Assembly (NCBI RefSeq): GCF_035084215.1
Contig: NC_090325.1
Coordinates: forward strand, 190,154,001 to 190,218,000
DNA length: 64,000 nt
From: Heptranchias perlo
Lineage: Eukaryota
Direction of reading: 5' to 3'
Each line of letters starts with the position of its first letter. The stretch's first letter is position 1. The notes below the pieces were generated by a model, which saw nothing but the letters and a program-made list of their open reading frames with translations, made no database searches and was not told the origin of the DNA. Positions 19,882-54,376 of this stretch are shown piece after piece. The translations under genes were made by a program, and so were the position numbers.

Positions 19882-20163
19882 TGAATGCATTGCATGAAGC
19901 TGAAGAAATGGCACCTTCCTGGTAGTCCACAGTGTTAGATACCAGATGTCCTCACGCACTGCACCAAATGGTTCCGGACACTTTTCAGAGGGCCTTGCTT
20001 TGAAAAACCCCATGAAATCACGACCGATTTTAAAATAGGATTTAGCTTCTCTTTAAAACACAAATTATATTTAAGAAGATCAACTCCCTCACCTCCCCCC
20101 CACCAAAAAAAAAAGCAGCAGTAAAATGGAGCATCCCTGTCACAAACTGTGTAGTAGCTGATA

Positions 20164-20421
20164 TGATGTGGAGATGCCGGTGACGGACTGGGGTTGACAA
20201 CTGTAAACAATTTTACAACACCAAGTTATAGTCCAGCAATTTTATTTGAAATTCACAAGCTTTCGGAAGCTTCCTCCTTCCTCAGGTGAACGGTGTGGAA
20301 ATGAAATTTCCACATTTCCACATTCATTTCCACATTCACCTGAGGAAGGAGGAAGCCTCCGAAACCTTGTGAATTTCAAATAAAATTGCTGGACTATAAC
20401 TTGGTGTTGTAAAATTGTTTA
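20164..20421. mobile_element. Palindromic non-coding Penelope-like insertion with hammerhead motifs (copy 1)
   Basis: ~87-bp inverted arms (20204-20290 / 20335-20421), 40-nt one-sided tail (20164-20203), 12-bp TSD tagtagctgata (20152-20163 / 20422-20433). Confidence 0.85.
20254..20288 (-). ncRNA. Minimal type I hammerhead ribozyme motif (intact core)
   Basis: Minus strand CAC-CUGAGGA-A-GGAGG-AAG-CUUCC-GAAA-GC-UU-GUG: CUGANGA and GAAA core, stem I CAC/GUG, stem II, palindromic AGCU mini stem III. Confidence 0.7.
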
Positions 20422-21614
20422 TAGTAGCTGATAGGCACATTCCAGAGGTCAGTGGCATCTTAGGATTGACCACTCATCTGCAAATTTGATGTGTTAGGAT
20501 TAGTTGATAAATCCATTGAGATAATCAAGAGGCTGAGACATACCTTCCTGACATCATTGCATCGTGAACTATTACACATTCGTTCTCTCTCTTGCTCTGC
20601 TTTCAACTATTGGAAATCAAATATAGGCAGCTCATCTCTCTTCCCCCATTCCCCCCTACCCCCTCTTCTCCGCCCACCCCCTTCCACTGGCCATCACTAT
20701 AAGAGCCTTGCAGCTTTAAAAATCAACTTAAGTGCTCCATCGATAGAAATTAACAGTCGTCTGGCGCTGCCATTGTGCTACTCATAAAGTGCCTTTAAAA
20801 TAACTTCAGTTTATCAAATAATACAGAAAGCCAAAAGAGGTCACTGAGGAGATTTGATTTTTTTTTTCCCCTTGATATTTTCAATTTATTTTGTGCTAGC
20901 TTTCAATAAAGTGAACTGTTACTGGTTCCGAAGCACTATACATCATGCAAACAGCCTGACACTATGTACAGCATTTAAACTGAGCTTGTTCGGAATCAGT
21001 GTCATTTCCATTCAGCTTTGCTTAAAACTATGTCTCTGACAGGGTTGTGGTGCAGTGTTGTGCTGCAGTGTGCTGTGCAATGATAGGTCGCAGATCCTCA
21101 TGGTTCCTCACTCTAAGTTCCCGATCTGAAACTTAAGAAAGGAAATGCTGAGTCAGCATCTGGAAGAGGATGACGAGCTGGCGTTTCAGGTCTGGCTCTC
21201 AATCAGGTTTTGAGTTTTTATTTGCAGTCTTCTTTTTTTAACCTCCCAATTCCTAATCTCAGTCATCACAAGAGGAATGGTTTCCTTTAGTGGCTAAGGA
21301 TAGTGACATTGTAAACAAATGAGGGCAGTGTAGCAAAGATGTGAATGCATTCTTTTTTGAACATGTCTGTGATTTCACTAGAAACTACTAATAGAAAGAA
21401 ATCTTCCCCCATTTGTTTACGATGCTGCCTACATATAACGACAACTGAGAATCACCCATAGCTGGTTATCCAGTTAGGGAAGGAGTGGAATTCAGAGAGA
21501 CAATTTCCTTGGGCTCTTATCCACGTACTTCCTACTCGCAGCCAGATAGCGAGCAGCAATGTTACGTTGTTTAATTGTCAACTTGCCTGCTTTATGGTTT
21601 GTGGCATGGGGAAA

Positions 21615-21843
21615 AAGAAAGAAAAGAATGAACTTGCATTTGTACAGCGCCTTTCAGGACCTCAGGACGTCCCAAAGTGCTTTACAGCCAATGAAGTCGT
21701 TTTGAAGTGTAGACACTGTTGTAATGTAGGAAACGCAGCAGCCAATTTGCGCACAGCAAGGTCCCACAAACAGCAATGTGATAATGACCAGATCATTTGT
21801 TATAGCGATGCTGGCTGAGGGATAAATACTGGCCACGACACCT
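21615..21843 (-). mobile_element. DeuSINE 3' half
   Basis: gcagcagccaatttgcgcacagcaaggtcccacaaacagcaatg. Confidence 0.85.
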
Positions 21844-21924
21844 GAAAAAGAGATGTGAGAAAGGCAGGAAATAACAAACAAGACAAATTGCTTTTCGAAA
21901 CAAAGGAGAATTCAAAAACCCTTT

Positions 21925-22216
21925 ATATTTCATTCTTGGGATATGGCCGCCGCTTGAGAAGGTGGTGGTGGGCCTTCTTCTTGAACCGCTGCAGCGCATG
22001 TGGTGAAGGTTCTCCCACAATTCTGTTCGGTAGGGAGTTCCAGGATTTTGACCCAGCGACGATGAAGGAATGGCGATATATGTCCAGTCAGGCTGGTGTG
22101 CGACTTGGAGGCGATGGTGTTCCCTTGCGCCTGCTTCGCTTGTCCTTCTAGTTGTTAGAGGTTGCAGGTTTGGGAGATGCTGTCGAAGAAGCCTTGCCGA
22201 GTTGCTGCAGTGCATC
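21925..22216 (-). mobile_element. 3' fragment of the 56758-58193 LINE family
   Basis: ORF 21793-22218 begins MHCSNSARLLRQHLPNL, matching MHCSNSPRLLRQHLPNP of ORF 57049-57273. Confidence 0.85.
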
Positions 22217-23063
22217 ATGTAAATAGTATAAAGACAACTGGATGAATGGGAGCGAATAGCTGTAAACCAGGTCTTAAATCTGTATTTTCCTTATGTTTTT
22301 GACATGTTTTACTCCAAACACCTTTGATCATTAGAGGCTGATTGTCTGAATAATTTAGGGATGTTTGCACCTTTATACATGAGCAGACAAAAGCACTCAA
22401 GGTTCTAATTGTCTTTGTAACTACAGTCAGATGAACTCAATCTGTTTAACAAATTTATGTATAAGTTACTTTCCTCCTTATGTCACCCACTTGTTACACC
22501 ATCTGCTGCCTTGTCTGATGTCTCACCCAATCTGACCAATCTCTCAGCCCTTCTGTTTTGTAGTATGAATCTGATCACTATTCAATGTACCTACTCATTT
22601 GCTTAAAAAAAAGAAGCTGACATTTACTAGGAGTTTCTGAATACTGGTGTTCATCTGTTCCATGTCTCAATGCTCCATTGACATTGAAAAGGAACTTGTT
22701 GGGTGAACTTTGACAGTGCAGCTCCAGAATGAAACTTGTCACCTACAAATTGCTCTTTTCGGTCACAGGTACGGAAACTTGCCATTCAGCCAAGGTGTTA
22801 GGTGACTCTGATATTAAGGGATTTGAAAATGAGGACACGTTCTTGAGGTGGCACAGGGAAAGAGTGGAGATTGACCAGGATAGATGTGCCTACCTTGTGT
22901 GGGACAAGGCACGGGCCGTACCATTTCCTGTTGAGGTTGTGTGTGACATTGAAGTCTTCCTTTGGTTTAATTGCTCCCTTTCTAGATAAAGGAAGTTTCA
23001 GTATGGCTCTCTGATGTCTACCTACTCTTGAGATGTGATGCTGCAATGTAACTGCAGCAAGTT

Positions 23064-23276
23064 TCTGGCAGTACGGGGCACAATTTCCGAGCTCGCTTGG
23101 TGGAGAGCCTTGCCCGCTGGTAGCGCGTGTCAAGAAATTGTGAGGGAACTGCCCACGATTTTCCACCCGTTAACTTTAGTGGCCTGAAGATCAAGGGCAG
23201 CATTCTTGAGATCTCCCAGTATGCACAGCAGGCGGGCAAGGTTGCCAGCAGTGTGAACTCAGAAAATTCACCCGTA
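23064..23276. mobile_element. Palindromic MITE (~210 bp)
   Basis: ccttgcccgc / gcgggcaagg and tcaagaa / ttcttga inverted segments; GGG...CCC termini. Confidence 0.65.
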
Positions 23277-23689
23277 GGGGTCAGTTTTAAGTTCCAAAAT
23301 CTATGCCCAAGGCTGCGGCTTGCATTGTGCAGTATGATCAGTGGTTGTCGTGCAATGCGTTCAGGGATGATCCATGCACAGACCTTAAAATTTCAATAAG
23401 TAACTGTTTGAAATGCGAGACGGAAAGTTATTTATAATTAAAGCGATAAGATCCATGCATGGATCATTGCACAACTAAACATCAGACTCATCTTCATGAT
23501 CGTGTTACTGCGCATGGCATTCCTGGGCATAAACTCAAACTGACAGGTAATTCATATTATGGTTGGATGTTATATCAACTAGATGTCAACCAGAATTTGC
23601 TTTAGTCAGTTCAAGAGCAAAGGCAAGTAACAACACTAAACTTTTTTGGAACTTCATTTCAAACCCTGCAACAAGAGCAGTCCTCATGT

Positions 23690-24105
23690 AAAAACAAGCA
23701 TCTCAGAGCACTTAATAAGGTGGACCTTGAGCAGGAAAACAGAGGGGAGGTGCAGTTGAAGGAATGGTCTCTGAGACATTTTAATCACAGAAAAGGCAGT
23801 AGCAATCTAAGTGGTTTCAGGAGAGCAGTCTAAAGGGCAGGAGCATATTGCCTGAAGGATGGGCTTCTACTGGTGGAACAAAGTGAGCAGAAAAGGAACA
23901 GTAATTTGGTGTTGAAGGAGCTGGGAGTGAGCGACATATGGCTTTTCGATTTCTTAGACATGGTGGAAGCAGGCCGTGGAGCTATTTGAAGATGAGGACA
24001 AGTTCTTGAAGTGAACTCACTGTGGCACAGGGAACAAGGGAAGATTGGCGAGGATAGATGTGCCTACCTTATAAGGGACAGGATGTGCGACATACTATTT
24101 CCTGT
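23690..24105 (-). mobile_element. Degraded L2 fragment
   Basis: Weak similarity to the 31078-31760 L2 (gcaggccgtggagctatttgaagatgagg). Confidence 0.5.
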
Positions 24106-24109
24106 TGCA

Positions 24110-24240
24110 GAGTGTAGTGTAGGAAATGCAGCAGCCAATTTGCACACAGCAAGGTCCCACAAACAGCAATGAGATAATGACCAGATAATTTGCTTTAGTG
24201 ATGTTGGTCGAGGAATAAATATTGGCCGGGACACCGGGGA
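24110..24240 (-). mobile_element. DeuSINE fragment
   Basis: gcagcagccaatttgcacacagcaaggtcccacaaacagc. Confidence 0.8.
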
Positions 24241-26499
24241 GGACTGTAACTATGGTAGTAGAGCCTTACCTCAACATTTTACACTGTCACTTTTTTACCA
24301 TAGTGAATCTAGTATCGTCTCCATTCTGAAGCACACTCAACAATACAGATCCCAGCCTCCCTAAACTAATGTTCAAAATCATCCTACTAGTAGTGGATTT
24401 CATAACCATTGGCAGGACCTTAAATCAACCTTTGCTCCCTGTGAGTTTTTGGGTCTTTATAACGCTGTTTATCCTAGATTATTTTGGCAGTTGTGTGTAA
24501 GACTACTGTTATGGGTGACTCCTAGCTCTCTAATCCTTTGAGAGTCTATCTCTACCTGTTCCACAGTGTACCTGATCATGTCTATCTTATTTGCATAACC
24601 TTCAAATCTATTTCTGACCAGTTATTCATCCAGCTCTTTTTGAAGGCGTTAGTTGACTCCAAGTATTCACTGCTCTGCAGAGGGAAAAACATAATTGTAA
24701 TCGCAAGTCTTGTTAATTGTTAAAGACTTGAGGCTTGTTAATTTGATACTCCTGTCTTGTGCACTGTGGGTTTAAATTGAATAACCTACTTGTATCTACA
24801 CCTCTCTGTGTGTTTTTAAAAAACTAGATTATTTCTCTGCTCAATATTCAGTCTTTCAAACGAAGACAGCTTCAACTTTGTGAGATGCTGTTCATAACTT
24901 CATAGAGCCCCAACTCCTTGGCTCATCCAAGCTGCTCATCTCTGAATCCCCTCCAATCCACTGACATTTTGAAGATGAACTACTTAAACTTGCATGCAGT
25001 ACTCATACTGTGACTTCGCTAGTTTTCTGTACAAGATTCGAATCACTTGTTTTGATATGTAAACATTCCTTAGATGCACTTACCTTGGTTGAGATAAATT
25101 ATCTTTTATACAGAATTACATAAAATGTACAGCACAGAAACAGGCCATTTGGCCCAACTGGTCCATGACGGTGTTTATGCTCCACACAAGCCTCCTCCCA
25201 TTCCTCTTCATCAAACCCAATCAGCATAACAGAGTGATGATATTATTATACTGATGAGATATATCAGTTGATCTGTGCAACAACTCAAAACATGTCTTTC
25301 CTCATCCTATATACATTAATTATGAGTTTGGTTTGCAAAATGATTTCAGAACAAGCACTTTTGAACTTATTATAAGGTCAGTTTTGACAGGAAAAATATT
25401 TAGAAGTGTTTATTTTTACTTGAGAAAGGCTGGATAAGAGTGACAGGAGCACAGAGAGTGGAACATTTATATTTTCTAATACATTGTAAATGGTTGCAGC
25501 ACATGCCTTTTTTGTTTACACTAATAATTCAAAGATAATTGTTCACAGAATAGTCGTTTATGCAGCTGTGATTTTTTTTCAGGTCGCTGTTAAAATAACA
25601 CTTGCCCGAAATTTCTGTTCCTAAACCATTGACAAATCACAACTGAATATGTAGCATACATACCGGTCAGCAAATACTAAGCTTGGTATCAAAATCACAA
25701 AGTTCAAAGAACTATAAATCATACATGGGCCTTCGGCAGTAGTTACCAATAAAAGAGGCTGAACCAATGGATTCGATCCAAACTATTTTGTAAGCTATTT
25801 CAGTCACTATAATTTAACAACAACTTACACTGATATAGTGCCCTTTAATGTTGAAAAATGTCCCAAGGCACTCACATTAAATACTTACTACTGAAAAAGT
25901 TTCTAACAAAATAGATAAACTTACCAATGCCATGGGATTTTTTTTCTGTTTGAAATGCTTTTAACATTTTTTTCCCCTTGGAGGCCTGTTTGAGGACCTA
26001 AGAATTGAGTTCATGAAGAAAATCAAGCTGCCAGCATTCAGCTTCGATCTTGCACTGTGTGTGTATAACTTCTATACTTTTTTTGTGACTGACATCAAGG
26101 CTGGACATTCACAGAACATGCCGGGACTTGCAGTTTATCAGCCCCACTCCCTTTCAATGGAACATTACCGAGGACGAAAACCCCCTAGAGTAATTGACCC
26201 TGAATTACATCAGTGACCTAGGAAAATTGGATGAGGGAGTCATTCTGCCGGCTCTCCTGTCACCTGACATCACTTTGGGGATTTTCTGCTCGAAGTAATG
26301 GGAGACATATATGTTTGCCCAAATATGGGTGAGCATATTATAACAGGACGCATATGACATCATTATTTATTCCTGAGATTTGCAGCATCTCTGATGTCCA
26401 GCATTGCTAGGGGCCATGAGATGGGGGAGGGGGGATGGTTAAAAGTTAAATAACTGGTTTGTTCTAAATGCAACCCACCGTCAATATGTTTATGAACAA

Positions 26500-27455
26500 A
26501 TATCAAGTCCTGGATAAGCCATAACTTGCTCCAGCTAAGCATTGACGAGACCAAATCCATCATCTTTGGCCCCGGTTAATAAATAGAGTTAAGACACAGA
26601 TCAGCCATTGTCTAATTGAACGGCAGAACAGGCTTGAGGAGCTGAATGGCCTAATCCTGTTCCAATGTTGCTATCTTCCTATGGCTGCAAATTCCATAAC
26701 CTTGCCATTGACTCCATTACGCTCCCCGGCCACTGTCTGAGGCTAAGCAAGACTGTTTGCCAACTCAATGCCCTATTTGACCCCAATTTGAGTCTCCAAC
26801 CTCATATCCCCTTCATTACAAAGACTGCCTACTTCCATCTCTGTAACATCACCCGCCTCCACCCCTACCATAGCCCGACCGCAGCTGAAACCCATATCCA
26901 TACCTTTCACATCTCCAGATTCCACTATCCCAATATTCTCCTGGCCTCCATCCTCCAGGTCCATAAAGTTCAGCGCAAATAAAGCCGTCCATATTCTATC
27001 CTGCACTAAATCCCACTCGTCCATCGTTGCTGTCCCCACTGACCTGCACTGGCGTTTGATCCTCCAAAGCCTCAAAGTTAAAATTTCTCATTCTTGTTTT
27101 TAAATCCCTTCATGGTTACACCCCACCTCTGTAACCTCTTCCAGCACCGTACAACCCCTGCTCTCCCGAACTCTGCCGTTCATCTGACCCCAGTCTCTTG
27201 TGCATACCCCTCCTCTTCAGCTCACCATTGGCGACTGTGCTTCCAGTCCCTTAGGTCCCACTCTCTGGAATTCCCTCTCCGAGCCCCTCTGCCTCTCAAC
27301 CTCCCTTTTTTCCCTTAAGGCCCCCAGTAAAACCCACCTCTTGGATCAAGCTTTTGGTTCCTTGGCCTGATGTCTACTCCTTTGCCTCGTTGTCGATTTT
27401 CTTCATGCTTCTGAAGCACTATGGGATATTTTTCTGTGTTAAATGTAGTTGATGT
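26500..27455 (+). mobile_element. L2 LINE 3' region with a nested CR1 tail (26575-26665)
   Basis: ORF 26665-26982 HIPFITKTAYFHLCNITRLHP is L2 ORF2-like; aacaggcttgaggagctgaatggcctaatcctgttcc is a CR1 tail. Confidence 0.8.
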
Positions 27456-28039
27456 TCGTTCTTCTGTCTGTGTCAGATCCAGAGCCCACTTTGTTGCTGT
27501 ATGCCTACTTATGAATTTCAGGTCATTTTCATAATTTACCAACTCAAATGATCTTCCCTTAGGAAAAACATCATAAGGAGTCTATTAGTAAGTTGATTAT
27601 TTTTCATGATTATTTAATTTCTTAATCATATGAAAGCAATTCCACGAACGTATAAGATGGTTGGCATACTTTGAAGTGTCTGCAGGGGTTTTAATTTTTT
27701 TTTAAACGCTCAGCCACAGAGGAATATTGTCTCTCTAGTTCTAGGGCTCTGTGTGGGCATCGTGTATATTTAGTATTTGTGGGAACCAGGTCACAGATCT
27801 GAACTGAAGTAAAGTCGATGAAGAATCCAGCTTTAGGGGCAACTGACCGTTCAGTTTAGTGAGATGCAATATTGAGTCACAGGAGCCATATAAGATCAAT
27901 TCTGATAAGACCAGATTCCTTGAATGATGAACTTTAATATAGCCTCAGTCCATCATTCCTCGTTTCGTTCCGTCCTTAATCATTTTTCAAATAGGACTTT
28001 TGTGATTTTCATCTTTCCCCCTTAACATTATTCTACTTT

Positions 28040-39021: not shown

Positions 39022-39352
39022 GTTGTGGTAGCTGAGTGGTTATGGTATTGGAATAGTAAACCAGAGGTCATGAGTTCAAATCTCATAATAGCAAGTTGTG
39101 GAATTGAATTCAATAAATCTGGTTATTTGTGGCCTAGCACCAGGAATGACAAAGGTGCCAGATTATTGTAAGCACCCAAATGGTTCACTAATGTTCTTCA
39201 GGGAAGGGAACTGCCTCCTGTATCTGGTCTGGCCCACATGTGACTCCAGTCCCACACTATGGGGTTGACTCTTAATCCCATCAAAGCAACTAGGGACGGG
39301 CAATAAATTCTGCCTCACCATTGTCGCCCACATCCCGAGAACAAAGAAAAAC
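39022..39352 (+). mobile_element. tRNA-derived SINE whose 3' tail matches the 56758-58193 LINE
   Basis: A-box tagctgagtggtt, B-box gagttcaaatc; tail gggcaataaat...cgcccacatcccgagaac vs LINE gggcaataaat...cgcccacatcccatgaac. Confidence 0.75.
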
Positions 39353-40439
39353 AATTAGACCAACTCTTTCATAGTCACAGAGCACAGGAACCCTAGATTT
39401 TGATCCAGCAAATTCAATCCTGAAGTTGTTTGATGACATAAGATTATCCAGCATTGAGTTTGATTAAAAACAGAAAATGCTGGAGAAGCTCAGCAAGTGA
39501 GGCAGCATCTGTGGAGAAAGAAACAGAGTTAACGTTTCAGGTCGAAGGCCTTTCGCCAGAACTGGAAGATGTTAAAGAGTTAAAGTTTTTAAGCAAGTAC
39601 AGAGCCAGTGAAAGAAGGGGGAGGGAGGGGGAGGGGGGGTGCAGGAAAGAACAAAAGGGAAGGTCTGTGATAGGGTAGAGGACAAAAATGATTAAATGAC
39701 AAAAGAGATGATGGTGCAAGGCAAGGAAGGTGGTAATGAGACAGGTTAAGAAACAAAAGATTGGTCAGGAGTAGCTGTAAATGGCAATAGCAGAACCAAT
39801 ACCAGCATCTGCTGTCCGAAAAAATGGGAGCAATGGTTATGATCTGAAGTTATTGAAATCAATGTTGAGTCCGGAAGGTTTTAAAGTGCCTAAACGAACT
39901 GGAAAATTTCATCAACTTTGCTCCCAATTTCCACCCTTCCCTCGCCTTCACATGGTCCATCTCCGACTCTTCCCTTCCCTTCCTCGACTTCTCTATCTCC
40001 ATTTCTGGGGATAGACAGTCAAACAATATCTATTATAAGTCCACCGACTTCCACAGCTGCCTTGGTTACACTTTCTCCCACCCCTCTTGCTGTAAGGATT
40101 CTATTCCATTCTCCCACTTTCTCCGTCTGTTCTGATGATGGCACTTTCCACACCGTTGTTACCGATAGGTCTTCCTTTTTCCTCAACCAAGGATTCCCCT
40201 CCACTGCAGTATACAGGGCCCTTGATCGTATCGGTCCTATTGCCCGCACTTCTGCCCTCACTCCTTCCCTTCCCTCCCAGAACCATAATAGGGTCCCCCT
40301 TGTGTCCCCACCAGCCTCTACATTCAATGTATCATCCTCCACCATTTCCGCCACCACCAGCAAAAACATCTTCCCCTCCCCTCCCCTTTCAACATTTCAT
40401 CACCTCCAACAACCGCTCTCCTCCCCATGGCACCTTCCC

Positions 40440-40848
40440 TCGGGAGCACAGGGGATGCAACACCTGCCCCTTCACCTCCTCCCTTCCCACCGTCCAGAGC
40501 CCCAAACACTCCTTCCAGGTGAAACAGCGGTTTACTTGTACTTCTTTCAATTCAGTATACTGTATCCGCTGCTCACAATACGGTGTCTTCTACATTGGGG
40601 AGACCAGACACAGATTGGATGATTGCTTTGCTGAACACCTCCGCTCTGTCCTCAAGCGTGACCCTGACCTGCCGATCGCTTGCCATTTTAATTCCCCGTC
40701 CCACTCCCACTCTGACCTCTCTGTCCTCGGCCTCCTACACAGTTCCAATGAAGCTCAATGTAAGCCCGAGGAACAGCACCTCATCTTTCGTTTCGGCACT
40801 TTACAACCTTCCGGACTCAACATTGATTTCAATATCTACAGATCATAA
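40440..40848 (+). pseudogene. GIY-YIG endonuclease domain of the PLE
   Basis: CNTCP...FTCTSFNSVYCIRCSQYGVFYIGETRHRLDDCFAEHLRSV...PIACHFN; upstream RT remnant is frameshifted. Confidence 0.88.
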
Positions 40849-41102
40849 TCACTGCTCCCATTTTTTTGGACAATAGGTGCTGCTAATGTTGCCATTTACA
40901 GCTCCACCTGACCAATCTTTTGTTTCTTAACCTGTCCTATTACCACCTTCCTTGCCTTGCACCATCATCCCTTTTAACATTTAATCATTTTTGCCCTCTA
41001 CCCTATCACAGATCTTTCCTTTTATTCTTTCCTTCCCTCCCTCCCCCGGCCTTTCCCTGGCTCTGTACCTGCTTAAAAACTTTTAACTCTTTAACATCTT
41101 CC

Positions 41103-41139
41103 AGTTCTGACGAAAGGTCTTCGACCTGAAACGTTAACT
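41103..41139 (+). ncRNA. Minimal type I hammerhead ribozyme motif in the PLE 3' repeat
   Basis: AGUU-CUGACGA-A-AGGUC-UUC-GACCU-GAAA-CG-UU-AACU; intact core and palindromic ACGU. The inverted copy at 39527-39563 has CUGGCGA (core mutation). Confidence 0.75.
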
Positions 41140-42439
41140 CTGTTTCTTTCTCCACAGATGCTGCCTGACTTGCTGAGCTTCTCCAGCGTTTTCTGTTTTT
41201 ATTTCAGATTTCCAGCATTGCAGTATTTTGCTTTTGATTGAGTTTGATTACATTTGTGCTCATTTGTGGGAACTGGTCTCTACTGAGATTTACTTTATTT
41301 TTGTTTCATAAATTCAACATCAAGGAATGCTGGAGCTAGAGTTTGCACTTAGCTCTGCTGGTTCCACAAGTTTAGGAAGAAGCAGTGGAATTGGAAAGTT
41401 GGGCAAACAGGCCTTAGGCAGGTTTTGCTTTCAATTGCTTCTGCCAACGAATTTTAGACTGTCCGGATCTTGTATGCTGGACTGCTTGTGCACATAGTCT
41501 TATTAAGTCCCAGAATGCAAAAATTTAGCAATGAGTACCTGAGAAAATGTCCTCGCTTTTGTGCTGGGATTGCACTTTTCCCCTACCAAGTCCATGGGTG
41601 CGAGGGAAGCCCCATGGGAGTAATCTTGACTTTGGGTGATAGTATAAAAGAGGCGACATCGGATTAGCCGCCTGTTATGCATTTCTTCCGATTTTAATTT
41701 CCGTTGACCTGCCAATGACATTGAAGATCGCCATACTTCTTGACTTTTCCTCCTCTGGTTCTTTCTAGGCCTGTACTGCTGTGCCAGCTAATGTGTTGGC
41801 TATAGGTGGATAACGGGGTTAAGTCAGCATGGCCAACACTTCCATCTCTTTTCCCGCTGAAGAGTAACAGGACCATACGGCTGCATTCGAGAAAGTACAG
41901 GGGGTCATTGCTCCACGTGGCCATCTGGGTGACAGGTTCCTGCTCCTCCACGCACCAACACTTGCTCCTCCTTCCTTGCACAATGTGACTGACCTGATGA
42001 TACTTCCTCAAACCCATCAACTGCACCTTCCTAGGTGTCAGCCTTGGTTCAGTGGTAGAACTCTCACCTCTGAGTCGGAAGTTCATGGGTTAAAGCCCCA
42101 CCCCAGATATTTGAGCACATAATCTAGGCTGACACCACTGAGCCACAGCTGATACCTACATAGAATTCAGAGCCTAAGCTGCCTTGGCGGACAGCTGAGG
42201 TCTGTCGTTGGTGCTATGGCCTTTTGATTCCTTAATAAATATTTTCAGCCTATGAAGATAGAGAGAATTAAATATAGCAGTGCTGGAAAGTGAAGGGTAC
42301 AGTTACACTGCACAGCAAGTTAAAGCTTTCCTTTGGAGAAGAATATATATCAGCTATCCTTCATTGAATAATGAAGAGTCTAGTTGCATCTCAAAGTGTA
42401 GACATCATTTAATAATACTAGTGCTTTATCATGTCAGAG

Positions 42440-42955: not shown

Positions 42956-43777
42956 TTGCTGTGGACTGTGTGCTGAATCCCTGGTACACATGCCCTTCTG
43001 AAGTAGAGACAAGAGTGCTATCAACCTGTAATTTTCCATTATAGAACATCTGTAAAATGTATTTGCCATCTACCTTTAATGCTGAGTGTTATAAAATTGC
43101 AACTGGAAAACCAGCCCAACAGCAGTTTATTTATAATAAGCTACTCCCTCCCCCAACATCGGAATAGGGTCATATTTTTGATTTAGTCGCAAAAATGCCA
43201 TTGCACCCTGCAAAGGGTTAATAACAGTTGAATCGTTCAGTTAATCCTCTGGACTCCATATCATTAGTTATTTTTTAAATGCTTAGGAACATTTTTTTGC
43301 CATGTTCCTCTGACACCATTCTGCACCAAATTATGTGGCACTTCTGAGGGAATGTTGAAGTAGGATGTGAGTACGGGCAGGTAAAAGAGTATCTTTTATA
43401 GGAGAGTGCTCTGTTCTGTTGGTAGAAAAAGGGAAAAAGGGCGTGCATTATCTTTTCGGGACGCGTGTTAAAACTGGGGTCACAAGTACTCCCGCAGCTG
43501 AATACTGACGAATCTTAAGTAGTGGATGGGGGAAAGAACAAATCCAAAATATTAGCGAATGTTCCAGAGAGGATTTCTCTTCTGCAGGGAACTCCGGTTA
43601 AAAAGTGAAACTGGACACAAGTCTTCAAGAGTTCCAGACATCCCAGCGATCGACCCTTCGATCAATTGCTCCTTCAGCATTCCCGGGTGCGGCTTCGAAG
43701 GACCTGAGTTGAAAGGGGCTACGCTGTAGTTAGTTATTTGAGGAGCGAACTGGAATACGTTGCTGGACTTTTGTTCA

Positions 43778-43985
43778 AATGTAAGGAATCTTACAACACC
43801 AGGTTATAGTCCAACAGTTTTATTTGAAAATCACAAGCTTTCGGAGCTTACCTCCTTCGTCACCTGACAAAGGAGGTAAGCTCCGAAAGCTTGTGATTTT
43901 CAAATAAAACTGTTGGACTATAACCTGGTGTTGTAAGATTCCTTACATTTGTCCACCCCAGTCCATCACCAGCATCTCCACATCA
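43778..43985. mobile_element. Palindromic non-coding Penelope-like insertion with hammerhead motif (copy 2)
   Basis: ~85-bp inverted arms around 43863, 36-nt tail 43950-43985, 13-bp TSD ggacttttgttca (43765-43777 / 43986-43998). The motif at 43861-43895 reads CUGACAA (core mutation). Confidence 0.85.
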
Positions 43986-44127
43986 GGACTTTTGTTCATT
44001 TAGGGACAAAATCCCTTTTCGCATCAACAAATTTGTGATACAAAAACTCTGCATTAATGGACTTCATTTTGCCCATTTTATATAACAGAGCTAAATAGCA
44101 TGTATTGGAGGATTGGAACGAGGTGTT

Positions 44128-46365: not shown

Positions 46366-46769
46366 TTGCCAGTGAAATCAGTAACAGAATTGAGAGTCTG
46401 TTGTGATCACCACAACAGATGTCAAGGAGGGTTTGAGAAGTGTTAGGTTATTTAAAGAAACAGGGATCTAAAAATAGTAAATTTCAATCATTTCTATATT
46501 TTGAAAGTACTTCCCCTCTCACAAGATGATTATCATTCTCCTTGAAGGCGGTAATTCAGAAGGAGCAAGGTGAGCATGTTTCATTAATACCCAAAAATTG
46601 ATTTTGAAATAAAGAATCATTTTTGCAAATTATACCCTCAGGAAGTCAGTTATAATTTAATTTTCTTGTTCAATATGATGGTGATATCATATCAACTCCC
46701 TTAAATTGCTTCAATGTGACACCAAGTAAAGGGCATTCTCAAGCCAGTGGCGTCTTTGGCAGTTTTCAA

Positions 46770-46917
46770 CAGACAAACACTGGGAAGTTCCTTGGCCACT
46801 CTTCTGATCAGCTGGTGGAAGATCAACAGAAACTCCGAGGTAGAACGTGTAATCGGTGTTTCCGTTGATCATCTGCTGAAGTTACAGTGGCCGATCAGGA
46901 GAATCAGGAAATTCCTA
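46770..46917. mobile_element. Palindromic MITE (~145 bp)
   Basis: ggccact / agtggcc and gatcaacagaaac / gtttccgttgatc inverted segments. Confidence 0.55.
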
Positions 46918-47133
46918 GTGAATATTTTTGAAGATCTCTTTTTAATAACAACCTGCTTTGTTTTTCCCTTGCTGTTGAGGTCCCATGACACCAATCGACA
47001 ATCTCCAATAGGGCAGGTGACCTCCTTCCAAGCTTTTGGCAGTTTAGGTCTTGAATGTGCCACTAGGAATCGTGCAAGAGCGGCCCAGGTCACTTTCTCT
47101 CCAATTTTCCCTTTCACTCCATGAAGAAGAGCA

Positions 47134-47750
47134 GATAATCAGTTTTAGTGATGTTGGTTGAAGGATAAATATTGGCCAGGACACTGGGGCGAACTCCCTG
47201 CTCTTCTTCAAAATAGTACCATGGGATCTTTTATGTCCACAGAAGGGGGCATACGGGACCTTGGTTTGACGTCTCATCTGAAAGACGGCACTTCCAACAG
47301 TGCAGCACTCCCTCAGTACTGCACTGTTGCTTATTGGCTCTTCCAATGGCGCAGAGCTTCCAGAGCTTATACTGAAGATGTACTGAGGGAGTGCTGCACT
47401 GTTGGAAGTGCCGTCTTTCAGATGAGACGTCAAACCAAGGTCCCGTATGCTCCCTTCTGTGGACATAAAAGATCCCATGGTACTATTTTGAAGAAGAGCA
47501 GGGAGTTCGCCCCAGTGTCCTGGCCAATATTTATCCTTCAACCAACATCACTAAAACTGATTATCCGGTCATTTATTTTATTGCTGTTTGAGGAAGCTTG
47601 CTGTGCGCGGGAGCTTGCTGTGCGCAAATTGGCTGCCATGTTTCCTACATCACAACAGTGACTACACTTCAAAAGTATTCCATTAGCTGTAAAGTGCTTT
47701 GGGATGTCCTGAGATCGTGAAAATCGCTATGTAAATTCAAGTCTTCTTTT
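47134..47750. repeat. DeuSINE (+, 47380-47750) with a near-identical 186-bp inverted copy (47134-47319)
   Basis: Arms differ at one position by eye; 60-bp spacer. ORFs 47044-47541 and 47158-47661 share near-identical peptides on opposite strands. Confidence 0.92.
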
Positions 47751-48194
47751 TACCGTGCAAATGAATCTCAATTTCCGCCATCTTCTTAATATATTTTTTG
47801 GTGAATTGATTCTCTGCCTTCTGTCTCTGTCCTGTTGTGATTGGCAGAGTTCTGACACCTCTCTTCTGCCAATTTCAATAACATGCTCTCTTTGATTGGT
47901 TAGAGGGTTGATAATCTAATTGGAGGGATGGAGGGGAAAGGGACCTGATGATCAACCAATGATTCTTCATCTCAGATGTACTAGCATTAATGGAAATAAG
48001 GATGATCACAAACAGCTCATTATTCTGTTTGGTGCAAAATACACCAGTAAATTGATGAGTTAATCGTAAGTGATATTCATTGGTATTGGATGATTGCAGA
48101 ATTGTTAAAATTAGACAGCTTCTATGTGTGAGATTATCAGGTGGAATCCATACATTTGAGATAGCGCCCTGCACTAGAAACGTAAACATGGGTG

Positions 48195-48740
48195 GAACAT
48201 GGGAACAGGAGTAGCCATTCAACCCCTCGAGCCTGTTCCGCCATTCAATTAGATCATGGCTTATCTGCATCTTCACTCCATTTACCCTCCTTGGTTCCAT
48301 ATCCCTTAATACCCTTACCTAACAAAAATCTATGGATCTATGGAGAAATTTTCAATTGACCCCCAGCCTCAACAGCTTTTTGGGGGAGAGAGTTCCAGAT
48401 TTCCACTACCCTTTGTGTGAAGAAGTACTTACTGATATCACCCCTGAACGGTCTAGCTCTAATTTTAAGATTATGCCCCCTTGTTCTGAATGCTCCCACC
48501 AGAGGAAATAGATTTTCTCTATCTACACTATCAACTCCATTAATCATCTTAAACACCACAATTAGATTACCCCTTAATCGTCTATACTTGAGATAATACG
48601 AGCCTGGTCTATGCAACCTGTCATCATAATTTAACCCTCTAAGCCTCTGCATCATTCTGGTGAATCTGCGCTGCACCCCCTCCAAGGGCAATATATCATT
48701 CCTGAGGTGTGGTGCCCAGAACTGAATGCAATACTCCAGA
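48195..48740 (-). mobile_element. CR1-like LINE 3' fragment
   Basis: ORF 48338-48850 LEYCIQFWAPHL...FFTQRVVEIWNSLP. Confidence 0.92.
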
Positions 48741-49254
48741 AGGGCAAGCTTTGTTTCTCGGGAACAACAAAGTGGCATTAGCATATTCTCTGATTTGACT
48801 TTTTCTATTATGCCTATTTTTCCCTTTATCTTCATGTTTTTGCAGCCCAACTAACTGGGAATTGCCAGTGTTTTCACTCGCAGGAGAAGTGAGAGGAAGC
48901 AAGGAGGTGGGTTCACCCTAGCATCCACAGCAATAGAGAGAGCGCTTTTAACAATGGATCCCATAATACTAATAGGTGGCTTTCATCAAAGATTTGAATG
49001 ATGGGATAGCACACCTCCACTGCATATTCTTGTTTTCTATTGCTCTCCAATGAGGTCTATTGGGGTCACGTTGGGAATTACTGACACTATCCATACATGC
49101 ATGGCATTGTGAACCTGAGGCAAGACAGTGAAAGATTATCATCTTGTACGTGAGTCTCCAACTGATTGTGGGACTGTTGGGAGGCCTTTGATTGTTCAGG
49201 TGTGAGGGTTGGTTGGAAGGTTTGCATGGATTGGAAAACTGCTTGTATCTTGCT

Positions 49255-49975
49255 CTCCTTATACTTCAGTGGATAAATACACTGTGTTATGTGAGCCTCA
49301 ATAGGTAGGTCCCGAGACTGATTCCTAATCCGAACTGAGGTGGTTGATCTCTTGGGCTGTCCGCGGGAGTATTCTTGGGCCGTCCGTGAGAGTATTCTTG
49401 GGCCGTCCGCGGGAGTATTCTTGGGCCGTCCGCGGGAGTATTCTTGGGCCGTCCGTGAGAGTATTCTTGGGCTGTCCGCGGGAGTATTCTTGGGCCGTCC
49501 GAGGGAGTATTCTTGGGCCGTCCGTGAGAGTATTCTTGGGCCGTCCGTGAGAGTATTCTTGGGCCGTCCGAGGGAGTATTCTTGGGCCGTCCGTGAGAGT
49601 ATTCTTGGGCCGTCCGAGGGAGTATTCTTGGGCCGTCCGTGGGAGTATTCTTGGGCCGTCTGTGAGAGTATTCTTGGGCCATCCACGGGAGTATTCTTGG
49701 GCCGTCCGCGGGAGTATTCTTGGGCCGGCCATGAGCGTAACCTTGGGCTGTCCATGGGAGTAGTCTTGGGACAGCCATAGGAGTATTGTTGGGCTAGTAA
49801 AGAGTAATAAACCAGTTAGGCCTCCACTCTTGTTCATTCCTGCATTCTGGAAAACATACATCTGTAGACATTGGGTGAAGATAGGATTGGGTTTGGCTGT
49901 GCTACTATCACTGGTCAACTAGGCTGCCAATAGTCACTGACTAAACTCACACATGAAAAATAGTCATTTGAGCAA
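49255..49975 (+). mobile_element. Ancient SINE (11740 family) hosting the minisatellite
   Basis: Head ttcagtggataaatacactg...gagcc; downstream gggtgaagataggatt...cacacatgaaaaatagtcatttg. Confidence 0.55.
49350..49795. repeat. 23-bp minisatellite, ~19 copies
   Basis: Unit TCTTGGGCCGTCCG(C/T/A)G(G/A)GAGTAT; homogeneous core with degenerate right-hand copies. Confidence 0.97.
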
Positions 49976-50819
49976 GCAAATAATTGGGATGTATTGAGCA
50001 TTTAAGACTAATTATTAATATTAATTCTTCTGAACAGAAGAAATTTATTCCCCATAGGACAATTTTGATTACTTAGATACCTGAAGATTGTCATACATTG
50101 TTTCCTCATCACCCCTAAAGCTGTACATTATTCACCAATCCCTTGTGTATGTTTTGTTTGCTATAAAGAAACTTTTGACACTTCATTGCATATCTTATTT
50201 CTTACAAACACTCAAAAAACTTCGCAATACGGAGAACACTCGATTTGTCCTGTTTAAGATTGTTGTTATGTGGTGATCCGTGGTCTCATTTATCAGGTCA
50301 GATTAACTCTTCCCTGGTGGCCCTCTCTATTTTCCTCGAGCCTGTGTGGATTCCAGTGAGAGATTTCCTTTTGGTTACGTCTGATTTAGGACGGCTGGTA
50401 TTCATTTGTCAATGTACAATCCCACAAGAGCATTGCAAAGATAGAATGCAGCCATTTTCTACATGACCAACACTCTCAATATTCATACTTCAGTGTTTTT
50501 ATGCAAACAATTTTTTAGCTGACAATATGCTCTTATCGCTTCCATATTCTGGTACTACACGGAGAATAAATGATGTTCGAGAGGTAAGTCTTTCAGATGA
50601 AATGTTAAACCGAGACCACTAGAAGCAACCTGTTACCAAAGAAAGTAAAGAAATGGTTAGTGAACAATTACGTGACTGGATGGTTCAACTTTCTATTAGC
50701 TGCATGAAAGTAAAGGGGAATTGTAGAGGAAACATTTATCCTCTGCAACTTTTTTTTAATGATAGAGAGCCATCAACAACTTGAATTAACCTTAGTGCCT
50801 TTAGAAGACGTTTCACAGA

Positions 50820-51430
50820 TAGCAGGACAAGTTGATCAGGCTGTTAAAAAGCATGCAGCATCTTTGACTTTGTAAATAGAGGCATATAGTACACAAGCAG
50901 GAAGGTTATGTTAAACCTTTATAAATCGCGGGTTAGGCCTCAGCTGGAGTATTGTGTCCAGTTCTGGGCACCACACTTTAGGAAGGATGTCAAAGGCCTC
51001 AAGAGGGTGCAGAGGAGATTTACTAGAACGGTATCAGGGATGAGGGACTTCAGCTACATGGAGAGACTAGAGAAGCTGGGATTGTTTTCCTTATAGCAGA
51101 AAAGTTCAAGGGGAAATTTAATAGAGGCGTTCAAAATCATGAATTAATAGAGTAAATAAGGAGAAACTGGCGTGAGGGTCGGTAACCAGAGGACACCGAT
51201 TTAAGGTAGTTGGCAAAAGAGCCAGAGGTGAGATGAGGAGAAATTTTTTTACGCAGCGAGTTATTATGATCTGGAATGCACTGCCTGAAAGGGCAGGGGA
51301 AGCAGAGAAAATTGCAGGGCTATGGGGAAAGAGCAGGGGAGTGGGACTAATTGGATAGGTCTTTCAAAGAGCCACCACAGATGGGCCAAATGGCCGCCTC
51401 CTGTGCTGTGAGTTCCTATGATTCTATAAT
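50820..51430 (+). mobile_element. CR1-like LINE 3' fragment
   Basis: ORF 50908-51096 VRPQLEYCVQFWAPHFRKDV. Confidence 0.9.
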
Positions 51431-51774
51431 TCTTGGTGAAAAGCAAATGGATGCTGAGCCACCAAACCAAGAGAGTAGAAGGGTGACTGAAAACTCAGTC
51501 AAAGAGATGGGTTTTCAGAAGGTTTTTAGAAGGTGAAGATAGAGAGATTCCAGAGAGGAGGACTCGGGTGACTCTACACTCTGCAGCTAATGGTGGGGCA
51601 AAGGGAGAGAGGAAGAAAGCAAGGCTAGACTCAGAAGAACTGAGCATTCGGAGGTGGGGGGTGGGTGGGGGAATATTGGGCCAGAAGAATTTGCAAAGGT
51701 AGGGGGCAAGGTCTTGGGAGAAATTTAAAGGTGAGGATGAGGATTTGAAATTTCATCTGTTGGGGAAAGGGAAC

Positions 51775-51965
51775 TACCTATCCTACCTCTCTTTCCTCCT
51801 TTAAGATGCTCCTTAAAACCTACCTAATTGACCAAGCGTTTGGTCACCTGTCCTAATATCTCCTTATGTAGCTCAGCGTCAAATTTTGTTTGATTACGCT
51901 CCTGTGAAGCACCTTGGGACATTTTACTACATTAAATGCACTATATAAATGTAAGTTGTTGTTGT
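51775..51965 (+). mobile_element. L2 3' tail (a degraded - strand L2 lies at 51440-51770)
   Basis: cactatataaatgtaagttgttgttg. Confidence 0.8.
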
Positions 51966-52059
51966 AATGTAAGTCATTGAGGATGGGGTGGGGGTGGGCG
52001 AGACTTTACTGATGATTTCAACAATGAGCGTACAGAAATAAAGAAAACAAAGAACAACC

Positions 52060-52562
52060 AAGAAGGATGTGAAGGCCTTGGAGAGGGTGCAGAGGAGATC
52101 TACCAGAATGGTATCAGGAATGAGGGACTTCAGGTATGTGGAGAGTCTAGAGAAGCTGTGATTGTTCTCCTTGGAGCGGAGAGGATTAAGGGGAGATTTA
52201 ATAACGGTGTTCAAAATGATGATGGGTTTTGATAGAGTAGATAGGGAGAAAATGTTTCCACTGGCAGGAGGGTCGGTAACCAAAGGACACAAATTTAAGA
52301 TGATTGGCAAAAAATCCAGGGGGAAGTGAGGAGAAATTTTTCTACTCAGCAAATGGTTATGACCCGGAATGACACTTGATAAGGTGGTGGAAGCAGATTC
52401 AATAGTATCTTTCAAAAGGGAATTGGATGTATTCTTGAAAAGGAGAAATTTGCAGAGCTACGGGGAAAGAACAAGGGGGTGGGACTAATTGGATAGCCCT
52501 TTGAAAGAGCTGGCACAGACACAATGGGCTGAATGGTCTCCTTCTGTGCTGTATGATTCTCT
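52060..52562 (+). mobile_element. CR1-like LINE 3' fragment
   Basis: gaaggatgtgaaggccttggagagggtgcagaggag...gggctgaatggtctccttctgtgctgtatgattct. Confidence 0.9.
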
Positions 52563-53399
52563 GAAATGGATAACGAATGACTAGTGAAAGGTATGGCTCT
52601 CTACCTTTCGTTGTCTCAGTGCGTCAAATTTCCCATTTTAATTGGCGAATAAAGTCTCATGATTTAGAACGAGCCAGACTGTGCAATCCTTGCAGGTTAC
52701 AGTTTGTCGGGTGTGTCATTTTATTTGAGATGCCTGCACTTCATGCATATTTGAAAGACGAATTGAAAGGTTGTTAAACCCATTGGTGTACTGTAATAAA
52801 AAGCAGTTCTATTTCACAGTGCACAGTCACATTTCTTTGCCAGTGGTCTTTTATAACTCAAAAGTGTTTGCCTCGACCAATAATGTCATTGGCAGATAAT
52901 TACTTACATCTGTCACTGGATTAAAAGCATTTGGGCTGTAAGACAGAAAGCAGCTCAGCGCAGTGTCATTTATTGAAGCCCACATCAATGCAGATGATCC
53001 GCCTCTCAAAAGGTAGCGTAATTAACACATAGCTTAGTCAGCTGTTCCTGACAGTCAGATATCAGCAAACAGTTTAACTGTAATGACTATTTGCCACATC
53101 CACAACACTTGCTTATTCATCGTTTGGACTTGCTTCAGAATGTTCTTCAATCTTTCTGTTCGTTCCTGAGGGACATGACCATTTTGGAACAATGCAAATG
53201 AAGAGTCAGTATCTTGTGCATGCTGGGTCACTGCAATAAAGAGCCACCAGATTTATTGTCCTCAATTTCACATTTCTCAGCAGACTATAAAAATCTAATG
53301 ATTGGCTTCTTGATAGGAAGGAGCCTAGCACAAGCCATGCATCCCTGTGTTGCGATGTTAACCTGCTAATGCAACCCTGTTGCATGTAGTCTCAACCAA

Positions 53400-53750
53400 A
53401 TACAAAACGTATTTTTGCGAACCAAAAAACAAATCTGAAATAATCGAAAATGGTGGAAACATTTAGCAGGTCAGGCAGCATCAAGGGAAAGAGAGAGAGA
53501 GTTAATGTTTCAGGTCGATGACCTTTCATCAGAACTGGAAGATGTCAGAGATGAACAGCTTTTAAGCAAGAGCCAGGGAAAAGGGGGACAAGAAAGGAAT
53601 AAAAGGGAGAGAGGTCTGTGATAAGGTGGCGGGCAGGAGTGATTAAATGACAAAAGTGATGATGGTGCAAGGCAAAACAAAGTGGTAATGAGACAAGTAT
53701 AGAAACAAAAGATGGGTCCAGAGGAGGAGTAAATGGTTACCGCAGAATGG
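53400..53750 (-). mobile_element. PLE 3' repeat fragment (39467 family) with hammerhead motif at 53500-53536
   Basis: Homologous to 39467-39800; minus strand AGUU-CUGAUGA-AAGGUC-AUC-GACCU-GAAA-CA-UU-AACU. Confidence 0.8.
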
Positions 53751-53808
53751 CAGAGGAGGAGGGAAGCATGGAAAATCTGTCAAAGAGAAGACTCCCATAG
53801 CTCAGGAA

Positions 53809-54021
53809 TAATGTAGAGATGCTGGTGATGGACTGGGGTGGACAAATGTGAGGAGTCTTACAACACCAGGTTATAGTCCAACAGCTTTATTTGAAATCAC
53901 AAGCTTTTGGAGCTTTCCTCCTTCGTCAGGTGAGTCACCTGACGAAGGAGGAAGCCTCCGAAAGCTTGTGATTTCAAATAAAGCTGTTGGACTATAACCT
54001 GGTGTTATAAGACTCCTTACA
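53809..54021. mobile_element. Palindromic non-coding Penelope-like insertion with hammerhead motifs (copy 3)
   Basis: Inverted arms 53847-53933 / 53935-54021, 38-nt tail 53809-53846, 12-bp TSD atagctcaggaa / atggctcaggaa. Confidence 0.85.
53936..53970 (+). ncRNA. Minimal type I hammerhead ribozyme motif (intact core)
   Basis: CAC-CUGACGA-A-GGAGG-AAG-CCUCC-GAAA-GC-UU-GUG, followed by AATAAA. Confidence 0.75.
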
Positions 54022-54376
54022 ATGGCTCAGGAATGTGGTGGAAGAAATTAACCAACCTTCTCCTTTCATTATTATTCACACTAAATTTGGATGAAGAAAC
54101 AAAACCACCCATTAAAATATGTTGTACTCACTGCCATCACATTGAGTGCAGTTGCTTCAGTCAATTTGCAGAGACCTAACTTTCACTAAGCTATTAGATA
54201 TAGGTGTGGAGCACTAAAATTATATCAAATTGTTGAGTAGAAACACTCTTCAAGATTCAGATGGATGACACGCAGGCGCACAGTCTCGTTTGTGCTGTGA
54301 AATTCTTCAGCATCTTTGAAAAGCTGCTGAAAGCTGCTGAGAGTAGAAATGCCACTCTAGACGTTTTAATACCCTT

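Follow-up and report, generated by a model that had tools for sequence, protein, structure and literature searches.

The three short palindromes in the window, by which we mean the whole 64,000-nt stretch of DNA analysed here, are minimal head-to-head insertions of an abundant autonomous Penelope-like element (PLE), built from about 130 nt of its 5' UTR, probably as run-off products on a linear transcript. Across the family, the cluster of arm ends tracks the TATA box of the parent element, and not its hammerhead ribozyme or the predicted cut site. As by-products, the mini-palindromes come from a transposon type that is already known, and their inverted copy, one-sided tail, target site duplication (TSD) and minimal hammerhead are all published PLE traits; judged from the accessible parts of that literature, the stop position of the arms is the part for which no earlier report was found. 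Our search of the accessible literature returned no account of TATA-anchored run-off ends in PLEs, and a prior description of the family or of this pattern is possible.

The palindromes and their parent element

The original prediction described three hammerhead-bearing palindromes, each with its own 12–13 bp TSD, and all three (E1, E2 and E3) are present where it placed them, with tails of about 35–40 nt and arms of about 87–99 nt. Their layout is as follows, negative PLE positions being counted from the ATG.

E1 (20164-20421; arm overlap 99 nt)
20152..20163, no strand: left TSD, 12 bp, exact
20164..20307, minus strand: tail-bearing arm, the last 144 nt before the PLE ATG; 5' end at about TATA+24
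20164-20203, within the tail-bearing arm: tail, 40 nt
20254..20288, minus strand: intact minimal type I hammerhead; predicted cut between 20257 and 20256
20308..20322, no strand: junction filler, 15 nt, a local repeat of the arm end
20323..20421, plus strand: tail-less arm, starting 40 nt above the ATG; hammerhead without the AGCU palindrome
20422..20433, no strand: right TSD
E2 (43778-43985; arms about 87 nt)
43765..43777, no strand: left TSD, 13 bp, exact
43778..43862, minus strand: tail-less inverted arm, PLE -121 to about -35; begins within the hammerhead core
43860-43862: junction microhomology, 3 nt
43860..43985, plus strand: tail-bearing arm, PLE -126 to -1; hammerhead core with G8 changed to A
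about 43950-43985, within the tail-bearing arm: tail, about 35 nt
43986..43998, no strand: right TSD
E3 (53809-54021; arms 87 nt)
53797..53809, no strand: left TSD, 13 bp, last base shared with the tail end
53809..53935, minus strand: tail-bearing arm, PLE -127 to -1; 5' end at TATA+30; core mutated
53809-53846, within the tail-bearing arm: tail, 38 nt
53935..54021, plus strand: tail-less arm, carrying an intact minimal hammerhead
53936-53970, plus strand: intact hammerhead; predicted cut between 53967 and 53968
54022..54034, no strand: right TSD

The TSDs are exact in E1 and E2, and in E3 the 13-bp copies differ by one mismatch, with 10 bp exact. The idea of a three-copy family survives in part: all three derive from one kind of PLE, but they are not copies of a single unit, because their best matches are different subfamilies and they have three different junctions. 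The same is true of the proposal that the arms carry a hammerhead motif. The two intact cores expected at 20254-20288 (minus) and 53936-53970 (plus) are there, but only two of the six arms are fully intact, E2 having no intact core at all and the second arm of E1 having lost its palindromic AGCU. A motif scan gave five matches in the window against none in 50 mononucleotide shuffles. Rfam at its gathering threshold reported no hammerhead in the window, a result that is uninformative for this type because minimal PLE hammerheads have no helix III. The core, stems I and II and the palindromic 15.2-16.2 positions of the minimal type I class are all found in the motif, which occupies -127 to -88 of the parent PLE across aligned subfamilies and likely works there. 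An AATAAA lies at about -84; if it ended transcripts in the 3' pLTR, linear RNAs would carry the RT start sites at their 5' end only.

That parent, an autonomous PLE ending in the same tail, had been proposed as something to look for and was found. A 30-nt stretch of the tail has 37,912 exact matches genome-wide; the tail directly precedes the parent open reading frame (ORF), ending on the A of its ATG, and tail plus ORF start together match exactly 863 times. An intact tandem unit of 3,081 bp encodes a reverse transcriptase (RT), a Cys linker and a GIY-YIG-type end in a frame open over more than 900 codons (RVT_1, E 3e-10), the linker reading C-x4-C-x2-C and the C-terminal end VVYLIRC..YIG, plus R and H motifs. 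The Pfam GIY-YIG model did not match the parent protein directly; its endonuclease (EN) region aligns to P0026, which carries PF01541, and a search of solved structures gave one weak RT match (E 0.84). In P0001, C-x4-C-x2-C stands before the EN, in the form of the Neptune/Nematis linker criterion (CX2-5CxxC), and it is this linker motif, not a tree, that suggests a Neptune-type placement for the parent.

The family comprises tens of thousands of young copies, with intact ORFs and natural variants of the spacer between TATA box and hammerhead. A second PLE family is also represented in the window. Two loci (L086 and L250) are tandems of 3,081-3,083 bp. Tail–ORF junctions with less than 300 nt of matched ORF were dropped (6 of 37, L105 among them only because the locus is short), and a partial copy precedes 31 full-like units. 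Insertion ends were tabulated against 44 natural reference copies, the table holding 184 sampled copies once three of 187, whose alignment fell short of the tail, had been dropped. An adjacent inverted arm is present in 114 of the 184, and palindromes of at most 300 bp made of the 5' UTR only account for 100, about half of the insertions. Genome-wide there are at least 8,954 palindrome loci.

Arm ends relative to the TATA box and the hammerhead

The inversion points cluster, in line with the prediction of stereotyped minimal PLE insertions, which is supported by the discovery of the parent as well: the zone 115-145 nt above the ATG takes in the ends of 63 of 114 inverted arms, and tail arms stop there in 81 of 184 copies (-115 to -145) against 8 of 184 over the whole of -176 to -299. 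Copies without an adjacent inverted arm also stop in this zone. A table built on a single reference gave an end spike at -122, which is false, an artefact of the divergence of subfamilies above the hammerhead.

One reading of the cluster, extremely improbable in our judgement, is that the arms stop where hammerhead cleavage leaves a 5' end. The motif is conserved, its pairing positions being paired in 88.7% of cells as against 28-51% when slid, although the changes are mostly G-U, only two pairs have changed on both sides and the covariation is weak. The predicted cut, however, lies at -93, where no arm ends (none at -92 to -94, nine at -89 to -91), 144 ends falling instead at -115 to -145, and in vitro the Anolis element PAc takes uncleaved RNA (PMC11167929).

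The ends pile up at TATA+28 to +33, below a conserved TATA box, and 0-20 nt above the hammerhead; a transcription start in that interval would fall at about -128, -132 and -139 for short, middle and long spacers. In three classes of TATA–hammerhead spacing, the longer arm ends a median of 5, 9 and 16 nt above the hammerhead, whereas relative to the TATA box the medians are +32, +30 and +30; the slope of TATA tracking is 0.86 +/- 0.24 (p=4e-4, n=101). Both TATA box and initiator are motif matches, the latter occurring at TATA+27 to +30 in 27 of the 44 references and absent from the other 17. Genome-wide counts of 20-mers for one subfamily group are 14,770 just below TATA+30, 7,850 at TATA+1 to +20 and 8,190 just above the TATA box, the three words being unequal in degeneracy and in the subfamilies they cover. 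Of 101 longer arms in the zone, about a quarter (25) end at TATA+8 to +27, above the supposed start. No consistent extra G, the signature of a cap, was visible by eye at the 5' junction of 40 copies without an adjacent inverted arm.

The same parent PLE could also yield such ends on an ordinary long template if RNA structure or the early processivity of RT decided where copying stops, the enzyme dropping off just past the unwound hammerhead or after about 130 nt. The position of the pile-up close above the hammerhead favours this, as do short palindromes in several of the spacers and a blind test that was only partly clean: when subfamilies were re-assigned from downstream sequence alone, which left 23 of 101 copies ambiguous, the short- and long-spacer classes still differed (medians 5 and 11 nt, p=0.004), the middle class having a median of 16 nt. 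Against it, the end shifts with the TATA box while the hammerhead stays at -122, and a block due to structure should make itself felt at the hairpin's 3' foot rather than on its 5' side. Moreover, a second pass after a full unit rarely stops at the same sequence (3/22 in the zone, against 81/137; Fisher p=6e-5), 18 of the 22 running past the TATA box. We regard a stop of this kind as unlikely.

Two proposed primings, their junctions and the fate of the products

The reading we prefer, run-off on a linear transcript, would begin with RT starting inside the 5' UTR, primed from both nicked target strands. One cDNA, primed at the ATG site, would give the tail-bearing arm, and the other, primed at the -36 site, the tail-less arm; both would run off the likely 5' end of the transcript, TATA+30 being the putative transcription start, and their 3' ends would be linked by 2-3 self-complementary nucleotides or by a short filler. 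Long copies, which extend beyond that start, would require a template that is circular or multimeric. In PAc, nicks are made and extended on both target strands, and RT initiates internally at two sites that bound the tail (PMC11167929); the transfer is by analogy, since PAc is a Poseidon element with its start sites inside the ORF.

In 90 of 114 copies the start of the inverted arm falls at -33 to -38, giving a second start about 36 nt upstream of the tail end at the ATG. Flush junctions overlap by at least 2 nt in 39 of 62 cases (17% in the null), and TSDs of 12-13 bp, which are 71% A+T, were found in 78 of 150 copies. An origin from two RNAs would predict arms of different subfamilies, which are rare here, being clear in only one of 113 palindromes (L208) and partial in L002.

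Self-priming, already proposed for inverted PLE junctions in one study (PMC3846280), would have a single cDNA fold back at a short palindrome and copy itself into the inverted arm, the tail arising when the intermediate is resolved. That both arms nearly always belong to one subfamily, and are identical in 43 of 113 pairs, fits such a fold-back, and so does the correlation of their ends (rho 0.64; 52/105 within 5 nt), which self-priming predicts too; ends are also frequently located at palindromic words (AAGCTT, for example). However, in 36 of 105 copies the tail-less arm outreaches the tail arm on the 5' side by more than 5 nt, and in 17 the reverse holds; in L035 a tail-less arm of about 2.8 kb stands beside a tail arm of 0.9 kb. 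As both length orders occur, a single fold-back is insufficient without later deletion, and the fixed start at -33 to -38 is less simply explained by it than by two RT start sites as in PAc. Self-priming is thus, to our mind, an improbable source of these palindromes.

The original prediction had offered, as its other option, a palindrome of 200-260 bp that is a retrozyme-like non-autonomous unit, transcribed, self-cleaving and re-inserted by a PLE enzyme. The abundance of palindrome loci, the retention of at least one intact core in 66 of 105 palindromes, the recurrence of some junctions and a tandem retrozyme-like array of the same PLE elsewhere in the genome (L249) would suit a self-copying unit. 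Yet 99 distinct junctions occur among 106 palindromes and none of 29 fillers recurs; the commonest junction is a 3-nt microhomology found in several subfamilies and in both polarities. The cores lie on opposite strands, there are no head-to-tail tandem units, no TATA box and no pile-up of ends at the cut site, and the hairpin is favoured over the ribozyme fold by 50 kcal/mol (in E3, -155 kcal/mol free against -105 with the hammerhead forced), which bears out in silico the expectation that the long hairpin competes with ribozyme folding. The claim of a self-copying unit is therefore not supported, and we hold it to be very unlikely.

As run-off products, the mini-palindromes have no TATA box, and the hairpin is predicted to enclose their hammerhead, which would be a passenger, so they are likely dead on arrival. 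Thousands of near-perfect hairpins of about 90 bp are thus spread through the genome and are predicted to give dsRNA where host transcripts cross them.

A wider reading, for which we would claim somewhat less than an even chance, distinguishes two classes of template: linear RNA from TATA+30 would give run-off mini-palindromes, and hammerhead-processed circles or multimers would give long copies of more than one unit and new retrozyme arrays like that at L249. Strong-stop-like cDNAs, inserted from both nicks by a dimeric RT/endonuclease, would then have left about 20,000 promoterless mini-palindromes. If this is true, DNA alone would suffice to map, from insertion ends, where PLE transcription begins and where RT starts at its two sites. 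The PLE literature, in the parts available, calls the post-initiation steps unvalidated and offers self-priming or circular templates as hypotheses; the origin of inverted ends, tails and partial tandems is a standing question that the present family addresses, and it yields sharp predictions, namely a TATA+30 start, linear run-off, circle read-through and two primings per insertion.

Comparison with known systems

The parent shares with EN+ PLEs of the Neptune type (Craig et al. 2021, PMC8557442; Arkhipova et al. 2013, PMC3846280) a single ORF with RT, Cys linker and GIY-YIG-type end, partial tandems, an inverted 5'-truncated neighbour copy, a TSD and a one-sided tail of 30-40 bp. TATA and initiator-like motifs in the pLTR, noted there for Pen2a_Av, are also present here, whereas mini-palindromes of the 5' UTR only as half of the insertions, and ends that track the TATA box, go unmentioned in the available portions of those papers. 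PAc (Poseidon, Anolis carolinensis; Frangieh et al. 2024, PMC11167929) likewise has a hammerhead near the ORF start, AT-rich targets and two fixed 3' boundaries enclosing the tail, but in PAc RT starts about 111-118 nt inside the ORF, compared with starts at the ATG and some 36 nt upstream in the present element. The PAc ORF begins within the ribozyme, which here lies wholly in the 5' UTR; the accessible part of that paper does not discuss inverted mini-insertions.

With the minimal type I hammerheads of metazoan PLEs (Cervera and de la Pena 2014, PMC4209133) the motif shares the CUGANGA/GAAA core, the palindromic 15.2-16.2, the absence of loop 3, an extra base between 9 and 10.1 and the G10.1-C11.1 pair, but stem II is here only 4-5 bp. 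The same study ascribed motif pairs 100-700 bp apart on opposite strands to truncated PLEs. Non-LTR retrozymes (PMC7229834; bioRxiv 10.64898/2026.07.22.740005) are similarly small and non-coding, with a type I hammerhead and a relation to PLE pLTRs, but they are head-to-tail tandems with one ribozyme per unit on one strand, whereas E1-E3 are single head-to-head palindromes; nor do the palindromes, with their independent junctions, amplify as a unit from a master copy. The array at L249, 9.5 units of 404 bp inserted under one TSD, matches the retrozyme layout.

The inverted arms also recall the twin priming of L1 elements. There, two target nicks each prime a cDNA, leaving a 5' inversion with junction microhomology and a retained TSD, the two segments covering different parts of the RNA and priming taking place at the poly(A) tail; here, in contrast, the two arms span one and the same stretch, and poly(A) is absent.

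Three palindromic insertions and their parent element

The three palindromes in the window are genuine and belong to an abundant, already known class, namely minimal insertions of a shark Penelope-like element (PLE) that appears, from a linker motif, to be of Neptune type. They have the form first described, the duplication of the last carrying one mismatch, and the table lists them with their intact ribozyme cores.

Palindromes and intact minimal hammerheads in the window
20164-20421, E1: 258 bp, near-perfect palindrome, one-sided tail, 12-bp TSD
20254-20288, - strand: intact minimal hammerhead, in E1
43778-43985, E2: 208 bp, near-perfect palindrome, one-sided tail, 13-bp TSD
53809-54021, E3: 213 bp, near-perfect palindrome, one-sided tail, 13-bp TSD with one mismatch
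53936-53970, + strand: intact minimal hammerhead, in E3

Of the six arms, only these two carry an intact core, the remaining four being mutated or beginning within it; a motif scan gave five matches in the window and none in 50 shuffles. Across subfamilies the hammerhead is conserved, its changes being mostly G-U and its covariation weak, and it is thus likely to be maintained in the parent PLE. Counting PLE positions backwards from the tail end (-1), AATAAA is kept in aligned references just below the hammerhead, at about -84 to -79 (e.g. window 43902-43907), despite which the sampled insertions have no poly(A) at their ends.

The 3.25-Gb genome contains 37,912 exact copies of the 30-nt tail, 8,954 loci that match a strict head-to-head pattern centred on the hammerhead and 20,735 matches to a 29-mer from the ORF end. 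Walking upstream along long copies led to an ORF, and hence to an autonomous PLE with a matching tail, of the sort that the first reading proposed to look for. As the tail adjoins this ORF, terminating on the A of its ATG, and the two occur together in 863 genome matches, each arm is the stretch directly before the ORF of a PLE. An intact 3,081-bp unit stands in tandem at one locus (L086); its ORF of >900 codons contains RT motifs (RVT_1, E 3e-10) together with a C-x4-C-x2-C linker, and ends in VVYLIRC..YIG; ORFs of 902 aa are found at L250, L252 and L253 and one of 891 aa at L258. The closest named relatives of the protein are shark proteins (80-96% identity), and its C-terminal part aligns to a match carrying the Pfam GIY-YIG family. 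The linker points to the Neptune type, as defined in PMC8557442.

For statistics, copies were chosen by tail alone, comprising 98 drawn from the first 100 exact matches on contig C1 and a further 89 with a one-base tail variant on C1-C2; alignment against 44 natural references led to the removal of three (n=184). An adjacent inverted arm is present in 114, starting at -33 to -38 in 90 of these, and 100 of the 184 are palindromes of <=300 bp. TSDs of 12-13 bp (71% A+T) flank 78 of 150 short copies. Extrapolated from the sample to the exact-tail count, there are roughly 20,000 mini-palindromes genome-wide.

Where the arms stop

Stereotyped minimal insertion was one of the two readings first offered, and the inversion points do cluster: the interval -115 to -145 holds the ends of 81/184 tail arms and 63/114 inverted arms, with only 8/184 tail arms ending over -176 to -299. 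The pile-up is alike in both samples (42/96 and 39/88 tail arms), and none occurs at -93, where the ribozyme is predicted to cut. The subfamilies share a conserved TATA-like motif at -157 to -169, its spacer to the hammerhead varying from 36 to 47 nt. In the 101 copies ending in this region, the median stop of the longer arm above the hammerhead is 5, 9 and 16 nt for spacers classed as short, middle and long, and +32, +30 and +30 when measured from TATA; the end follows TATA spacing with a slope of 0.86 +/- 0.24 (p=4e-4), with no trend when measured from TATA (p=0.82). TATA+28 to +33 is the end of 49/101, and 27/44 references have an initiator match at TATA+27 to +30. Against TATA anchoring, 25/101 end at TATA+8 to +27. 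Blind re-assignment of subfamilies confirmed only the short-versus-long contrast (5 vs 11 nt, p=0.004), the middle class giving 16 nt with 23 copies ambiguous. Genome-wide counts in one subfamily group, from patterns not strictly alike, fall from 14,770 to 7,850 across the stop point, with 8,190 above TATA. Together, the arm ends suggest that cDNAs run off at a transcription start.

An RT stop set by sequence or structure would be expected to recur after a full unit. Among 31 arms with a partial copy before an ORF, 22 reach -115; of these, three end within the zone and 18 continue beyond TATA (3/22 against 81/137 on first pass; Fisher p=6e-5). Such rare second-pass stops fit an RNA end present only on one template class, and the end statistics point to a second class; the same result shows that long copies come from templates without an end at the stop point, by way of circles, read-through multimers or template switching, none being favoured. 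Nine of the 31 arms (L084, L252, L261, L264, L267, L268, L270, L273, L275) stop at -40 to -74, inside a stem-loop predicted to enclose the RT start sites, where a bound protein may be the block.

How the arms join

In 105 copies compared for 5' reach, the tail-less arm extends >5 nt further in 36 and the tail arm in 17, with agreement within 5 nt in 52; among long copies one arm may greatly exceed the other, in either direction. Flush junctions overlap by at least 2 nt in 39/62 (17% in the null), and 29 copies carry fillers, some copied from the element. Those at L247 and L094 derive from ORF nt about 60-120 and the ORF end, respectively, which suggests template jumps during joining. The arms differ by 1.8% and belong to a single subfamily in all but 1/113, plus the partly mixed L002; both cDNAs therefore derive from a single RNA or a single source locus. 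Two primings at the two RT start sites fit this origin; fold-back with later loss, a less likely source of the inverted arm, is also compatible with it. The palindromes at L002:1336-1626 and L208 have arms wholly or partly from different subfamilies, the former with a tail at both ends.

Neighbouring repeats and known systems

Other features of the window
39022-39093: weak Rfam match to a tRNA-like fold at 31 bits, the probable head of a SINE
39465-41201: second, distant PLE family with inverted arms, 33-36% aa identity to the parent protein over RT thumb and endonuclease remnants
about 41103, + strand: this family's own intact minimal hammerhead, palindrome ACGU, not AGCU
47129-47570: palindrome of a dispersed SINE-like repeat, 191-bp arms, 98% complementary, 60 nt apart
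49258-49855: 23-bp tandem minisatellite
about 53500-53760: another copy of the second family's end, adjoining E3, whose insertion site appears to lie within or beside it
about 53536, - strand: hammerhead-like motif in that copy

The proposal of a self-copying, retrozyme-like unit is not supported. Among 106 palindromes 99 different junctions occur and no filler recurs; the commonest junction (present in E2) is a 3-nt microhomology that several subfamilies share, in both polarities. Mini-palindromes are without a TATA box and carry their two cores on opposite strands; the long hairpin predicted to compete with ribozyme folding is, in the computed fold of E3, the more stable by 50 kcal/mol. Elsewhere, L249:1357-5182 (contig C2, about 21,272,860-21,276,680) holds about 9.5 nearly identical 404-bp tandem units, each an internally deleted copy of this PLE in which the first 127 nt of the ORF are joined to the last ~275 nt, with TATA, hammerhead and tail. 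The array lies under one TSD and terminates on the tail. It is arranged like a newborn retrozyme and may have arisen by rolling-circle copying.

In the literature covered we found no report of TATA-anchored run-off ends in PLEs, though the family or pattern may have been described before; what is added here, from DNA alone, is the arm-end evidence for run-off and a second template class. An adjacent inverted truncated copy with a one-sided 30-40 bp tail is standard PLE anatomy (PMC8557442; PMC3846280; PMC2377424), and minimal hammerheads are known in pLTRs, the tandem-derived repeats of PLEs, some of them as pairs on opposite strands, separated by 100-700 bp (PMC4209133). For PAc, the Poseidon PLE of Anolis carolinensis, a dimer is predicted, and in vitro both target strands are nicked and extended, RT initiates internally at two sites bounding the tail and the template RNA is uncleaved (PMC11167929). 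Retrozymes, as these sources describe them, are head-to-tail tandems (PMC7229834; bioRxiv 10.64898/2026.07.22.740005), whereas the elements of the window are head-to-head palindromes.
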